Shown piece by piece: positions 2,015-15,738 of a DNA stretch of 38,051 nucleotides (positions within the stretch are counted from its first letter, which is position 1; each line of letters opens with the position of its first letter). Source of the stretch: Mollicutes bacterium. Lineage in GTDB: Bacteria > Bacillota_I > Bacilli_A > RF39 > UBA660. The notes under the pieces are model-generated. The model was given only the letters and a program-made list of their open reading frames with translations. It did not search any database and was not told where the DNA came from. A program made the translations under genes and the position numbers. The stretch spans positions 1-38,051 of the forward strand of contig PWLE01000033.1 in NCBI GenBank assembly GCA_003559495.1, in the 5' to 3' direction.

Positions 2015-2717
2015 TATATCCTCCAAATCTTCTTTCCCTTTTATTATAAACCCGCAAAGCTTCTTCTAAATCTTCTTTCCCAAAATCAGGAAAATAAACT
2101 TCCGAAAAATAAAGCTCCGCATATGCTAATTGATACAACATAAAATTACTAATCCGCTGTTCACCACTCGTCCTAATTAACAAATCAATTGGTGGCAAAG
2201 ATTGGTATAAATATTGATAAAATGTTTTCTCATCAACCATATCAATATTAACACGATTGTTAATAATATCATAATACATTTTTTTACTCGCTGCAATAAT
2301 TTCCCTTTGGCCACCATAATTCAAACATATATTTAATGTTTTCCCTCTAAAATCTTTTGTTTTTTCCGTAATATTTTCAATAATATCATTAATCTCTTGA
2401 CTTAATGGTTCTCGTTCTCCCGAAACAACCATTCGAATTTGATCTTTTTGAAATCGCACAAAATCTTTTTGAAACTTTTTTTTAATTAATTTCATCAAAA
2501 AATTAACTTCCTTTTTACCCCGCTTAAAATTTTCGGTTGAAAAAACAAAAAGACTTAAATAAGCAATCCCTTTTGCAAAAACTAAATCAATAATTTCATC
2601 TAAATTTTCAGCGCCTGCTAAATGACCAGCACTTCTTTGTAATCCTCTATCTTGCGCCCAACGACCATTACCATCAACAATGATACCAATATGATTTGGT
2701 ATTTTTTCATAATCCAT
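1992..2717 (-). CDS. uppS: Undecaprenyl/polyprenyl diphosphate synthase
   Basis: PNHIGIIVDGNGRWA, FSTENF, DLLIRTSGEQRISNF and C-terminal RRFGG. Confidence 0.96.
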   Translation of the reverse strand: MDYEKIPNHIGIIVDGNGRWAQDRGLQRSAGHLAGAENLDEIIDLVFAKGIAYLSLFVFSTENFKRGKKEVNFLMKLIKKKFQKDFVRFQKDQIRMVVSGEREPLSQEINDIIENITEKTKDFRGKTLNICLNYGGQREIIAASKKMYYDIINNRVNIDMVDEKTFYQYLYQSLPPIDLLIRTSGEQRISNFMLYQLAYAELYFSEVYFPDFGKEDLEEALRVYNKRERRFGGYNGSKSNS

Positions 2718-10823: not shown

Positions 10824-11453
10824 TTAGTTTAGTTGCATCTCTTCCTTTAAACGCGTAAAAAAGTCATCTAAATATGCTTGGCGTTCTTTTCCGATTCGTT
10901 TTCCTTCTTTCGTATATAATTTTTTATCCATATTTTTTAAAGCAAGATCATATTCCATAATTGGGTTGTGTTTACTAACATCTTTAATATAACTACATTT
11001 AGGCATTTTATAATCTAGTGTTAGCCGCTGGCCATGTTGACCGGCAAACATAAAATTACGCGCAATCCCAACTGCTCCCATACAATCAATTTTATCGGCA
11101 TCAAACAATATTTTCGCCTCGATTGTTTTTGGTTCTTCAGCCGTTCTTTTGCGATGTGCTAAAATACAATGCTTTACTTCTTCGATTTTGACAAAGTTTT
11201 TTTCTTTTAAAATTGCCACCGCCATTTTCGCACCTTCAATCGCATGATCAACTTTACCGGTTTTATCTTTATTCTCTTTTTCCCTACCAATGTCATGTAA
11301 AAGTGCCGCCACTCTTAAAACTTCCATATCAACATTGCGTTCTTTGGCAGCGATTTGCAAACAAAGATTATACACACGCATAATATGTTCCCAGCTGTGA
11401 CTATTACAACTAATTTCTTTTTGCACAATCGCCATTATTTCTTGCTCACTCAT
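10824..11453 (-). CDS. HD-domain phosphohydrolase (YedJ-like)
   Basis: HSWEHIMRV, LLHDIGR, DHA, ILAHR and DADKIDCMGAVGIAR. ATGA overlap with the rnfB stop. Confidence 0.9.
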   Translation of the reverse strand: MSEQEIMAIVQKEISCNSHSWEHIMRVYNLCLQIAAKERNVDMEVLRVAALLHDIGREKENKDKTGKVDHAIEGAKMAVAILKEKNFVKIEEVKHCILAHRKRTAEEPKTIEAKILFDADKIDCMGAVGIARNFMFAGQHGQRLTLDYKMPKCSYIKDVSKHNPIMEYDLALKNMDKKLYTKEGKRIGKERQAYLDDFFTRLKEEMQLN

Positions 11454-11719
11454 ATTAAATTATTCCCCCGCAAATAAGCTTCCATCTCTCGTAGAGCATC
11501 ACCACGTAGCGGTTTACATTTTTGATATAACTGTGGATCATCAACCATCGCATCAGCCAAACCCTTACAAGTTCCATAACCACAAACACCACAATTATAA
11601 CCGGGCAGGAGCTTATCAAACTCATCACTTTTATTTTCTACTTTAAAACGATCGGCGACAAACAAAATTAAAAGTGATAATAATAATGCCGTTACCGTGA
11701 TAATAATAATACCAATCAT
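11450..11719 (-). CDS. rnfB: Truncated RnfB (TM helix plus N-terminal FeS domain only)
   Basis: TM helix, then LLPGYNCGVCGYGTC...CKP (RnfB N-terminal cluster motif). No downstream ferredoxin motifs. Likely start ATG 11719 (RBS AAGGGGTG), 89 aa. Confidence 0.8.
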   Translation of the reverse strand: MIGIIIITVTALLLSLLILFVADRFKVENKSDEFDKLLPGYNCGVCGYGTCKGLADAMVDDPQLYQKCKPLRGDALREMEAYLRGNNLI

Positions 11720-11826
11720 TTGCGACACCCCTTACAAAAATGACAATCACATTGTGTGTTGTTATTTATACGATACAATAAAATCGTAATAGCAATCATA
11801 AATAAAACTAATAAATATCCCATCAT
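11716..11826 (-). CDS. 36-aa membrane micro-protein with a Cys-rich tail
   Basis: MMGYLLVLFMIAITILLYRINNNTQCDCHFCKGCRK. ATGA overlaps with both the rnfA stop and the rnfB start. Not in the ORF track. Confidence 0.75.
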   Translation of the reverse strand: MMGYLLVLFMIAITILLYRINNNTQCDCHFCKGCRK

Positions 11827-12389
11827 AAGCCAAACCTACTAAAAATCATCGCCATAATACCCGCAATAATAAGGGCGATTGGCACACCTTGAAAACTAGC
11901 AAGCACCGGTCTTTGCGCCAATTTTTCCCGAATAGTCGCATAAATATAAATTAATATTGTAAAACCAAGCCCGCTTCCTAATATAAAAACAACTGTTTCA
12001 ATAAAATTATACTGATAATCAATCATCAAAAAAGCAATCCCTAAAACAGCACAGTTAGCGGCAATTAAGGGCAGGAAAATTCCCATTAATTCATAAATCT
12101 TAGGAAATTTTTTACGAATAATTATATTAATAGATTGAACAATAGAAGCAATTATTAAAACAAACAAAATTGTTCGCAAATACTCTGTCCCGGTCGGAAC
12201 TAAAACATAGTGATATAAAAAATAAGCAATTATACCACCAACAAACACGACAAAAGTAACTGATAATCCCATTCCTAAAGCACCTTTCTCCCTATGCGAT
12301 GTACCAATAAAAGGACAGATACCTAAAAACTTTGTTAAAATAATATTTTCTGTTAGAACACTAGCAATAAAAATACTAACTAGACTCAT
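11823..12389 (-). CDS. rnfA: Rnf complex subunit A
   Basis: ENIILTKFLGICPF and GIFLPLIAANCAVLG. Likely start ATG 12389. Confidence 0.93.
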   Translation of the reverse strand: MSLVSIFIASVLTENIILTKFLGICPFIGTSHREKGALGMGLSVTFVVFVGGIIAYFLYHYVLVPTGTEYLRTILFVLIIASIVQSINIIIRKKFPKIYELMGIFLPLIAANCAVLGIAFLMIDYQYNFIETVVFILGSGLGFTILIYIYATIREKLAQRPVLASFQGVPIALIIAGIMAMIFSRFGL

Positions 12390-13011
12390 GTAAATCACCC
12401 TTTATAAAAAATTTATTAAAAATAGCCAACAAAAAACCTAACGATAAAAATGCTCCCGCCGGGGTGGCAAAAATATTAAGATCCAAATTTACTGGCAAAA
12501 CTGTTATTATCCATTTATAACCTGTTATATTACTTAAATCATTCATAATCGTAATAGTATTATGAGCCAAGATTTCGCGCATTAAAGCAACCGCACTAAT
12601 AGTTAATGTAAAACCAAGGCCAATGCCAAGGGCATCTTGAACACTAACTAATACTTTTTCTTTACTAGCAACGGCAATTGCACGCCCTAAAACAATACAA
12701 TTAACGGTAATAAGGGGCAGATAAATTCCTAAAGTGGCATGCAAATCAGGAATAAATTCTTTTATTAACATATCAACCGTTGTCACAAAAGTAGCAATTA
12801 TTATAATAAACACTGGAATTTTAACATTTTCAGGAACCATTTTTTTAATTAACGAAACCGTTAAATTAGAAAAAAGCAAAACAAAAATAACACAAAATCC
12901 CATAATATAGGCACTTTCAAAAGTGTGTGAAACAGCTAATACCGGACATAATCCTAATAATAAAATAAAAACTGGATTTTGACTAATAATACCATCAATT
13001 ATTTTTTTCAC
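12376..13011 (-). CDS. rnfE: Rnf complex subunit E
   Basis: NPVFILLLGLCPVLAVS, LGIYLPLITVNCIVLGRA and PAGAFLSLG. Confidence 0.93.
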   Translation of the reverse strand: MKKIIDGIISQNPVFILLLGLCPVLAVSHTFESAYIMGFCVIFVLLFSNLTVSLIKKMVPENVKIPVFIIIIATFVTTVDMLIKEFIPDLHATLGIYLPLITVNCIVLGRAIAVASKEKVLVSVQDALGIGLGFTLTISAVALMREILAHNTITIMNDLSNITGYKWIITVLPVNLDLNIFATPAGAFLSLGFLLAIFNKFFIKGDLHESS

Positions 13012-13020
13012 AAATTCCTC

Positions 13021-13113
13021 CTAACTAATTAAAAGTTGCGTAAAATATATAATCACACCACATATTAAAGCCACTAATGTTAAAACCAAAACGCTTTTTT
13101 GTTTTTCACTCAT
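13021..13113 (-). CDS. 30-aa single-TM micro-protein resembling the RnfG N-terminal anchor
   Basis: MSEKQKSVLVLTLVALICGVIIYFTQLLIS. RBS GGAGGA 5 nt upstream, inside the rnfD end. The stop abuts the rnfE RBS. Sits in the canonical rnfG position. Not in the ORF track. Confidence 0.7.
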   Translation of the reverse strand: MSEKQKSVLVLTLVALICGVIIYFTQLLIS

Positions 13114-14506
13114 GATAATCCTCCAATACATTTCGTAAAATACTTTTTAAACTATCAGTTGTAATAGTAGCACTGCTAATTGTATCAACTTCTTCAAAAT
13201 CATCAGCCGCAATTAACTTTTCCACATAATTAGCATTTTCTACGCGCGCCCAATAACTTTCCGTTTGCGAGAGAATAACAAAATTAACCACTTCATCATT
13301 TTCTAAGATAACTTCAGCTTCAATCCACCCACTAAAACCTCTTTGCGAAACATGATATATCACTTGATTATCAACTTCTGCTACTTCATTAATTACAAAA
13401 TTAGCATCCTCATCTTTTTGATCAAAACCAGCGGCAACTAAAAAACTAATGCCGACAATTAAAATCCAAGCTAAAACAAAACCAGCCATTGATTTAGAAA
13501 AATTAAAACGAGCATAAAAACCAATTTTATCAAGAATAAACACTAATAAATTCATTGTCAAAATAGCAGTTAAAACGCCTTCTGGATAAGGGGATAAAAA
13601 TCGGAAAACAACCGTCAAAACACCTAAAAATAATCCAAACAATAACTGACCCACGGGTGTTGTCGGTGAAGTGACCGGATCGGTCGCCATAAAAACCGCC
13701 CCAAATAAAAGTCCACCACTAAAAATATGAAATAAAGGATACCAAGCACCAAAACCATGTAAAGTTCCAATCAAATAAGTCATAACAAATACCGTCGCCA
13801 CATAAGTAGTTGTTATGCGCCATTTAATCATACGATTAATAGCTAAGTAGAAAAAAGCCAAAATAATTAATAAAGCACTAGTTTCTCCTACTGAGCCTGG
13901 TATTGTTCCAATGAAAAAATCACTTAATCGACCATAAGGTTCCACTAAAGTTGCGTACCCGCCAATTCCTTCTACCTCCGTCGCCAATGGCGTCGCACCA
14001 CTAATTACATCCGCCTCATAAGGATTCAAATAACCGCCACTTTCAACAATATTAACTGAATAAATAGCCATAACAAATAAAACACCTAACAAGGCGGGAT
14101 TAAAAATATTATGACCAAAACCACCAAAAATTAATTTACCAATTGCCGTAGCTATAAAAGCACCTACTATTAAAATAAAAATTGGCGTATTTAATGGTAA
14201 AACTAAAGCAACAAACAAACCAGGCAGGAAAGCATATGATTTTTTAAAAGCCTCTTTAATATTTTGTTTGCGAAGAAAAAAGAAACTTATTTCTGTTAAA
14301 CAACTAGTTAAAACAGCAATTAAAATAAAAAACAAAGGATAAAAAATCATTATAAAATCATAATAACCCTCACGATATGGAATATAACCATTTTTATAAA
14401 TCGTAAAAATGATAATTGGCATTAACGCAATCAACAAATGATTCATAATTTGACTGGCGTTTTGACTATTTTTAATATAAGGTCCAGAAAAAGTTTTTAA
14501 GCTCAC
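13106..14506 (-). CDS. rnfD: Rnf subunit D fused to a C-terminal RnfG-like FMN-binding domain
   Basis: KLIFGGFGHNIFNPAL, flavinylation site DVISGATPL, GSVGETS and FMATDPVTSP. Then an extra TM and FMN-bind domain (GFSGWIEAEV...SQTES...VDTISSATITT). Confidence 0.9.
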   Translation of the reverse strand: MSLKTFSGPYIKNSQNASQIMNHLLIALMPIIIFTIYKNGYIPYREGYYDFIMIFYPLFFILIAVLTSCLTEISFFFLRKQNIKEAFKKSYAFLPGLFVALVLPLNTPIFILIVGAFIATAIGKLIFGGFGHNIFNPALLGVLFVMAIYSVNIVESGGYLNPYEADVISGATPLATEVEGIGGYATLVEPYGRLSDFFIGTIPGSVGETSALLIILAFFYLAINRMIKWRITTTYVATVFVMTYLIGTLHGFGAWYPLFHIFSGGLLFGAVFMATDPVTSPTTPVGQLLFGLFLGVLTVVFRFLSPYPEGVLTAILTMNLLVFILDKIGFYARFNFSKSMAGFVLAWILIVGISFLVAAGFDQKDEDANFVINEVAEVDNQVIYHVSQRGFSGWIEAEVILENDEVVNFVILSQTESYWARVENANYVEKLIAADDFEEVDTISSATITTDSLKSILRNVLEDYHE

Positions 14507-15738
14507 GCAATTTCCTCCTTTGCTCGTTGTACTTTATTACGCAAATTAATATTGGCAGGACAAACATAAGAACAAAGACCACATCCAACACACTTTTGCG
14601 GACGAAATTGCTTTAAATTATCAGTTGCCTCATTAATTAAAACTGGTGACAATTTAGCTGGACAAGCTAAAACACAAGCCCCGCAGCGAAGACAAGTTTC
14701 TTCTTTACACTCTTCTAAAGCAGTAATTATACTAACAGCCGTTAAATCACTACTGACTACTAATTCATAACTAGCAATGCTCTCCCCCATTAAAGGACCA
14801 TTGGCGATTAACATTTTAGAACCTTCTTCTAAGCCGCCTAAAAAATCAATAACATCACTAACCAACGTGCCATTTTTTACTAAAACATTAGCTGGTTTTT
14901 CTAATTTATCACCGCTAAAAGTAACCACTCTTTGTATAAGGGGCTGGTGATATTTTAAAGTTTCATAAATGGCATACATGGTCGCAACACCATTAACGAC
15001 AATTCCTTTTTCGATCGGATAATTTTTATATTTTTCTTTTTTAATTCGCCAAACTAAATCTCTCTCCCACCCCGAAGCATAATAATCAGGCACTTCTACT
15101 AATTTTAATTTAACATAAGTTCCAATATAATTTTTGATAATTTTTTTTATCAACAAATCATTTTTTTTAATTGCGATTATTCCTTCATTCATACCAAAAA
15201 TCTCCACTAAAGCATCCATTACCTCTAAAATTTCTTCACATTTGTTATTAATTAAAATTGCATCACTACTAGTATCTGGATCTGATTCCACGGCATTAAC
15301 AATTAATGTTTTTAAATCATTATCATATTTTACATAAGTCGGAAAGGCGGTACCACTTAATCCTACAACGCCACTTTCCTTTAACTTATTAATAACTTCT
15401 TCTTTAGTATAATCATATAATTGATATTCTTTATCATCTAACTGATCAACAAAATCATTTTCAATGACCAAGCATTTTACTTTTTTATTATTAAGATAAT
15501 ATTTTTGTTCAAAACCAAGCACCTTACCACTAATAGGAGCATGAAGGGGCACTTTTAAATCACCCTTGCTTTTAGCCACCATATCACCTTCAACAACATA
15601 GTCATCTTTTTTTACTAAAACCGTTATATCCTCACTTTTATGAGCCACAAGTGGCAAATAAACTTTATTAGGATTTAAATACTTTTTAAAAGGATAAATT
15701 TCCTTAATTGTTTTTTCTAAACGAATACCACGACTCAT
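14503..15738 (-). CDS. rnfC: Rnf subunit C (divergent)
   Basis: N-terminal LHAPISGKV, FPTYVK, SLBB region, two 4Fe-4S motifs (CLRCGACVLACP, CVGCGLCSYVCP). First gene of the operon. Confidence 0.88.
   Translation of the reverse strand: MSRGIRLEKTIKEIYPFKKYLNPNKVYLPLVAHKSEDITVLVKKDDYVVEGDMVAKSKGDLKVPLHAPISGKVLGFEQKYYLNNKKVKCLVIENDFVDQLDDKEYQLYDYTKEEVINKLKESGVVGLSGTAFPTYVKYDNDLKTLIVNAVESDPDTSSDAILINNKCEEILEVMDALVEIFGMNEGIIAIKKNDLLIKKIIKNYIGTYVKLKLVEVPDYYASGWERDLVWRIKKEKYKNYPIEKGIVVNGVATMYAIYETLKYHQPLIQRVVTFSGDKLEKPANVLVKNGTLVSDVIDFLGGLEEGSKMLIANGPLMGESIASYELVVSSDLTAVSIITALEECKEETCLRCGACVLACPAKLSPVLINEATDNLKQFRPQKCVGCGLCSYVCPANINLRNKVQRAKEEIA

Follow-up and report, generated by a model that had tools for sequence, protein, structure and literature searches.

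We know of no account of how the Fe-S centre buried in the membrane part of the Rnf complex is assembled. NqrM, a maturation factor of Na+-NQR, the sister enzyme of Rnf, has four conserved Cys residues. It is a small membrane protein, and two reports present it as proposed to deliver iron to the NqrD/E pair (PMC12174285, PMC6209661). For Rnf itself, a study of C. ljungdahlii describes RseC, a protein with two predicted helices, as required for function of the complex (PMC9124969). The Rnf complex of Thermotoga maritima, which has an RnfB of 10.56 kDa, was purified with the six known subunits and pumps Na+ with clostridial ferredoxin (PMC7414866). The window analysed here, a whole stretch of 38,051 nucleotides from a Mollicutes bacterium (contig PWLE01000033.1), carries an rnf operon in which a very small gene lies between rnfA and rnfB. 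The features of the operon are as follows:

14503..15738, minus strand: rnfC, 411 aa (TIGR01945, 2.3e-87)
13106..14506, minus strand: fusion of rnfD with an FMN-binding domain of the rnfG type, 466 aa (PF03116, 1.1e-79, at residues 7-328; PF04205, 3.6e-08, at residues 390-462)
13021..13131, minus strand: another small membrane ORF, listed with 36 aa, which separates the rnfD-G fusion from rnfE
12376..13011, minus strand: rnfE, 211 aa (family matches)
11823..12398, minus strand: rnfA, 191 aa (PF02508, 2.3e-47; TIGR01943, 9e-62)
11716..11826, minus strand: micro-protein gene, 36 aa, helix at about residues 3-19, tail C28-x2-C31-x2-C34 plus C26
11450..11719, minus strand: short rnfB, a helix and one PF04060 domain in 89 aa (counted from the ATG at 11719)

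The family matches agree with the initial annotation in naming the neighbours of the micro-protein gene rnfA (PF02508, TIGR01943) and rnfB (PF04060). The first possible start of rnfB in the ORF listing is an upstream GTG at 11728; the start is likely to be the ATG at 11719, to judge from the RnfB proteins of relatives, which begin there with M-I-G. In the Pfam/NCBIfam scan no ferredoxin domains were found in the RnfB of the window, which comprises only the PF04060 Fe-S domain and the helix, and its invariant Cys residues are C43, C46, C51 and C68. The cluster-ligand Cys residues C28 and C116 of RnfA are invariant in 28 relatives, and C22 and C105 of RnfE are invariant too.

Several other features of the operon deserve a description of their own. 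The fusion of rnfD with rnfG sets the window apart from relatives outside its family-level group, in which RnfG is a separate protein of 168-202 aa. The second small membrane ORF (13021-13131) is kept in 11 members of this group (L002-L005, L007-L009, L011, L016, L026 and the window itself), and none was seen in the other families; it has no Pfam/NCBIfam family match, and comparison with the relatives points to a start a few codons further in. Its helix (K..ILVLTL.A.IC..IIY...LT) resembles, by eye, the N-terminal anchor of the free-standing RnfG of other families. In the Peloplasma rnf gene list there are two accession gaps (PMC11122141), which might correspond to two extra small genes. On the other side of the operon, the start of an ORF of 209 aa (10824-11453, minus strand) overlaps the end of rnfB; it is kept after rnfB in L002 and L003, and shows, by eye, an HD-type motif. 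Between the window and L002, a member of the same genus, the DNA identity across 11450-12398 is 79% in rnfA, 96% in the micro-ORF and 99% in rnfB, a mosaic that could stem from recombination or from a chimeric assembly.

The product of the micro-ORF (11716-11826, minus strand) is, in the ORF listing of the window, the 36-aa protein MMGYLLVLFMIAITILLYRINNNTQCDCHFCKGCRK. Its residues 3-19 are hydrophobic and make up one membrane helix, and the tail carries the Cys residues C26, C28, C31 and C34. The ATG of the micro-ORF (11826-11824) and the stop codon of rnfA (11825-11823) share the tetranucleotide ATGA, as do its own stop codon (11718-11716) and the ATG at 11719-11717; a Shine-Dalgarno-like stretch for the ATG start of rnfB, AAGGGGTG, sits within the micro-ORF. 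The initial annotation had considered that an ORF filling the rnfA-rnfB gap exactly, with ATGA overlaps at both ends, is unlikely to arise by chance. The overlaps are indeed there, but the length of the ORF is not a rarity: 49 ORFs of 30 aa or more lie wholly or partly in the 9-kb stretch around it, and therefore the micro-ORF taken alone says little in favour of a gene. It is conservation, and not length, that goes beyond chance and identifies the ORF as a gene.

We searched 61 related genomes (G000-G060) for RnfA and found it in 26; the set of loci compared comprises 27 usable rnfA loci besides that of the window, with L026 (truncated) and L030 (a duplicate of L019) left out. Between rnfA and rnfB, 18 of the 27 relatives' loci contain a small ORF whose single hydrophobic helix is followed by a CxxCxnC tail. 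The peptides fall into two size classes, 33-43 aa in the family-level group of the window and 60-88 aa elsewhere. Alignments of 19 and then of 36 sequences identify the residues corresponding to C28, C31 and C34 of the window as invariant. The conservation in relatives, to which the initial annotation had looked as a check of the Cys pattern, thus holds for the ORF but not for all four Cys residues: C26 of the window is not conserved, and in four of the 11 short forms there are three Cys only. Among the short forms the spacing between the second and the third invariant Cys varies from x2 to x6, and a His is sometimes found near the motif (L009, L010), while the ATGA junction of the peptide gene with rnfB is kept in 11/11. 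The helix and the three Cys residues are retained across genera in which RnfA identity falls to about 40%. Six genomes lack the peptide after rnfA; five of them have a copy elsewhere, and the sixth is outside the class sample described below. Being conserved to this extent, the 36-residue membrane protein encoded between rnfA and rnfB is the product of a genuine gene.

Two loci were seen to be unusual. In L016 (from the relative G008), the position of rnfB is occupied by a 33-aa helix ORF without an Fe-S domain (2173-2274, plus strand), and the four-Cys peptide upstream, also of 33 aa, is intact. L072, labelled 'uncultured Muribaculaceae bacterium', has the same locus of rnfA, peptide and short rnfB as L003, with an identical 33-aa peptide; the taxonomic label looks doubtful for this operon of the low-GC Bacillota type.

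Genomes were also sampled across the whole class: the family profile found a match in 173 of 301, and RnfA was matched in 172 of 300. Peptide and RnfA occur together in 162 of the 300 genomes; 117 have neither, 11 have the peptide only and 10 have RnfA only, counts that overstate the independent support because the genomes are kin. The exceptions include many borderline cases: nine of the 11 peptide-only genomes have matches near the threshold (E > 1e-5), and among the ten RnfA-only genomes there are one with rnfA at a contig edge, two that are 55-68% complete and four from one genus. Among the matches listed, at least 77 of 126 peptide matches lie on the same strand as rnfA, from -20 to +150 nt downstream of it, and the remaining 49, in 41 genomes, are away from any listed rnfA. 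These free-standing copies are found after a phosphoglucomutase-type gene, or before a uracil-DNA glycosylase-type or dCMP-deaminase-type gene; their neighbours are housekeeping genes, and no common functional theme was found among them. The peptide is thus present almost exactly where Rnf is, throughout this class of low-GC bacteria with small genomes, with a kinship that inflates the apparent independence of the cases. The initial annotation, which had proposed a hidden gene coupled between rnfA and rnfB, is upheld by the conservation, the ATGA junctions and the co-occurrence with RnfA: the gene is real and tied to Rnf, and the arrangement of its start and stop codons indicates that the micro-protein would be made by translational coupling between rnfA and rnfB.

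The peptide of the window is most likely a shortened form of an unnamed family of 50-95-aa proteins, the length range seen among the best 150 of 442 cluster representatives that an exhaustive profile search returned at E<=1e-3 (102 of them at <=1e-10). An alignment-based search of a protein collection yielded 49 proteins, from records of Haloplasma contractile, Mycoplasma sp. P36-A1, Mycoplasmatota, Erysipelotrichaceae and Bacilli, which are all "hypothetical protein" where named and none of which has a precomputed Pfam domain. The peptide is carried by a Solobacterium MAG as well. The family build is a membrane helix followed by LNKKTPxPxGC, then 5-9 residues and then C-x2-C-x4-C. The motif CxxCx(1-7)C is present in 191 of 193 collected proteins, with the spacing C-x2-C-x4-C in 184 of these 191 and a fourth Cys in 149. 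The protein collection searched includes one form of 40 aa but none of 33-37 aa, evidently because gene callers skip forms of that size. With the long forms the window peptide shares its place directly after rnfA, the single helix and the invariant CxxCxnC. A profile built from long forms only finds it with E=0.027 (8.6 bits), at rank 2 of the 365 ORFs of the window, behind RnfB, and its assignment to the family rests therefore mainly on position and build; the short form of L004 is found by the same profile at 3.9e-5.

Comparisons with known families and structures place the peptide in no described family. Nothing above threshold was found in Pfam and NCBIfam for any of 19 family members, and the nearest clusters in the ESM Atlas are unnamed, the nearest named one being PF12669, at 0.81. 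In an AlphaFold2 model of a long form (mean pLDDT 85), a helix predicted with confidence is joined to a second one by a loop that has a small bridge; no cluster fold can be recognised, and Foldseek gave no match to the model in the PDB at E<=10. Against PDB sequences the family profile produced chance helix matches only (E>=0.065), with no Rnf chain among them. No fused forms of the peptide were found among proteins of 145-2000 aa, which is weak evidence, and in the literature searched we found no description of this peptide.

The family resembles a part of Rnf itself. Comparison of the peptide family with RnfB by hhalign gave a probability of 93% (E ~3e-7). When the columns of the RnfB tail were shuffled, the hhalign score dropped from 41.2 to 23.7 +/- 1.6, and the observed value was reached in 0/60 shuffles. 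Along its whole length, the profile of long forms only aligns with residues 1-64 of RnfB (helix, linker and CxxCx4C motif), and among 900 ORFs it places nine RnfB N-termini (1e-6 to 1e-3) ahead of all the unrelated ones; no RnfB is among the 193 proteins behind this profile. The long form is thus collinear with RnfB over about 60 residues, with an anchor helix, a linker of similar length and C-x2-C-x4-C, but the peptide lacks the fourth ligand of RnfB (C-x16-C-K/R-P) and the rest of the domain, and no match to PF04060 was found for members of the peptide family. The short form of the window has the x2 spacing, whereas RnfB and the long forms have x4. Any likeness beyond the helix may reflect descent or convergence, which sequences of this length do not suffice to tell apart. 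From this collinearity, the long form may dock where the RnfB anchor does, or as it does.

Comparison with the helper proteins introduced above reveals likeness in build and setting. NqrM and the peptide are both small, sit in the membrane with a single helix and have a Cys motif, and both are encoded with a complex in which a pair of subunits, NqrD/E in one case and RnfE/A in the other, holds an Fe-S centre within the membrane. On the other hand, NqrM goes with NQR, whereas the peptide goes with Rnf and has three invariant Cys residues. No match to the NqrM model PF04400 (DUF539) was found at E<=10 for 19 family members; a scan of the 61 genomes with the same model gave 0/61, a count that is uninformative, as the model was silent in the controls too. 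A target for a helper of the NqrM type does exist here, since C28 and C116 of RnfA and C22 and C105 of RnfE are invariant. With RseC/MucC the peptide has in common that it is a small membrane protein genetically tied to rnf/rsx, but RseC is larger, has two helices instead of one and shows no sequence relation to it. The micro-ORF has no match to the RseC/MucC model (PF04246), which is over its cut-off in 0/61 relatives, 26 of them with RnfA, and is detected in three control genomes that bear Rnf/Rsx, those of E. coli, B. thetaiotaomicron and T. maritima. Because RseC was not found in the 61 relatives, the peptide may fill the need for it, and by analogy it may be functionally equivalent to RseC in these genomes.

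The initial annotation had also compared the micro-protein with the FeoB-associated Cys-rich membrane peptides (PF12669), and here the build agrees but membership does not, as the scores stay below the cut-off. In the two kinds of peptide, which have lengths of 33-70 aa and often escape gene callers, an N-terminal helix is followed by a basic stretch and a CxxC..C tail, and translation of the PF12669 peptides is also described as unproven (PMC8749426). However, the PF12669 motif, Cx3-5Cx2-3Cx6-8C, does not fit the CxCx2Cx2C of the window, whose ORF has no PF12669 match at E<=1; ten of the 18 relatives' ORFs match, the best with 21.9 bits against a Pfam gathering cut-off of 27 bits, and in a whole-genome scan the rnf-linked ORFs scored 14.5-16.6 bits, similar to random helices. 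The sub-threshold matches, the nearest named ESM Atlas cluster and hhalign probabilities of 93-95% against seven feoB-adjacent peptides of the same class would agree with a general iron-handling peptide of the PF12669 type, present in the rnf operon by chance and serving iron uptake instead of Rnf. We consider this very improbable. The membrane helix carries most of the hhalign score, because shuffling the Cys-tail columns still leaves 29.2 +/- 3.3 of 42.8 (with one of 60 shuffles reaching the observed score); the seven genuine members of the class lie directly after feoB, whereas the present gene follows rnfA, between rnfA and rnfB; and the presence of the peptide follows that of RnfA. Besides, the FeoB gate domain (PF07670) was not detected in the window's genome (G000, 83% complete), and the matches of the FeoB_N model, which rings in all 14 controls, are ordinary GTPases. 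It is scarcely credible, on the other hand, that the ORF arose by chance in the rnfA-rnfB spacer and is kept only by the constraint on the ribosome-binding site of rnfB. Small ORFs are frequent in the window, the Shine-Dalgarno-like stretch of rnfB does lie within this one, and the changes within the closest pair, the window and L002 (3 non-synonymous, 1 synonymous), are not numerous enough for a judgement, but the conservation of the helix and three Cys residues where RnfA identity is about 40% contradicts such an origin, and so do the free-standing copies far from rnf and the 442 database clusters called as genes.

The remaining alternatives accept a role in Rnf and differ in what the Cys residues would do. 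The peptide might, as the initial annotation suggested with its candidate extra Rnf subunit compensating for the short RnfB, stay in the complex as a seventh, stoichiometric subunit that has a redox centre of its own beside a minimal RnfB, contributing an extra Fe-S cluster, held alone or shared with RnfB or with a second copy, and widening electron entry in the way the ferredoxin domains do in long RnfB. This is suggested by the translational coupling of its gene between two structural genes, by the collinearity with the RnfB anchor and three of the four cluster ligands, and by L016, which keeps the Cys peptide though the position of rnfB holds a 33-aa helix only. The 25 aligned RnfB proteins of the class are all 84-127 aa long, with four invariant Cys residues. 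A further point in favour of a seventh subunit is that, in a cross-phylum sample of 80 rnfA loci, 56 of which carry on the same strand an ORF like RnfB, the peptide comes after rnfA in 6/7 short-RnfB loci and in 0/49 long-RnfB loci. The contrast, however, sets a single lineage against all others: every one of the seven short-RnfB loci is from a Bacillota or Erysipelotrichaceae-type record, so that RnfB length and lineage are not separable. A short RnfB by itself demands no extra subunit, because the T. maritima complex is active with an RnfB of 10.56 kDa and six reported subunits (PMC7414866). Further points against a seventh subunit are the three invariant Cys only, the fused form of at least 145 aa that was not found (weak evidence) and the gene that, among the matches listed, is away from any listed rnfA in 41 genomes, which agrees no less with a helper than with a fixed subunit; we regard this alternative as rather unlikely. 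Less probable still is a structural peptide without a redox role, in which the Cys residues would bind zinc or form a small knuckle that does no more than anchor or stabilise, within the membrane, the RnfB helix or the RnfA/E pair. The variable Cys spacing of the short forms (x2 to x6), the occasional His near the motif (L009, L010) and the lack of a recognisable cluster fold in the AlphaFold2 model of the long form speak for it, but the C-x2-C-x4-C of the long forms is nearly fixed (184/191) and equals the spacing of the first three ligands in the cluster motif of RnfB.

We tentatively favour an accessory peptide of Rnf that binds iron or an Fe-S cluster and has a helper role of the NqrM or RseC kind, a reading to which we give somewhat less than an even chance. 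Since basic residues come after the helix, the Cys tail would lie on the cytoplasmic face of the membrane, which would be the side of the RnfB [4Fe-4S] domain and of the entry to the in-membrane [2Fe-2S] centre of RnfA/RnfE. The three invariant Cys residues, often joined by a fourth Cys or a His, would hold iron or an Fe-S cluster, and the peptide would deliver or stabilise, specifically for Rnf, the Fe-S centres of RnfB and RnfA/E. Its role would parallel the one proposed for NqrM with Na+-NQR and the possible one of RseC in other Rnf complexes. A helper is preferred to a permanent redox subunit because its gene is often unlinked from rnf, because RseC is missing from these genomes and because three Cys residues suit a transfer site better than they do a fixed cluster, none of which is decisive. 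Against the favoured reading count the three invariant Cys residues, which are too few for a cluster in a monomer, and the ten RnfA-positive genomes without a peptide match, and likewise the low profile score that links the short form of the window to the long family, the lack of a shared theme around the free-standing copies, the kinship of the genomes and the NqrM model that matched no family member. A more specific version, possible but doubtful, is that the peptide is a cut-down copy of the RnfB anchor and cluster loop and the Rnf counterpart of NqrM, tethered at the cytoplasmic face of the membrane and carrying, on three Cys residues with an open site, an Fe-S cluster that would be handed to the RnfA/RnfE centre or kept, making the peptide a redox-active seventh subunit of Rnf complexes with a minimal RnfB.

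As outlined above, a conserved member of the rnf operon has been missed by gene callers, and 'RnfABCDGE' may be an incomplete parts list in Bacillota with small genomes. If the peptide is the counterpart of NqrM or a seventh subunit, the term 'six-subunit Rnf' would fall short for a whole class of bacteria from gut and sediment. A conserved and mostly unannotated family that tracks Rnf in hundreds of genomes provides a concrete, testable candidate for a factor in the assembly of its Fe-S centres.
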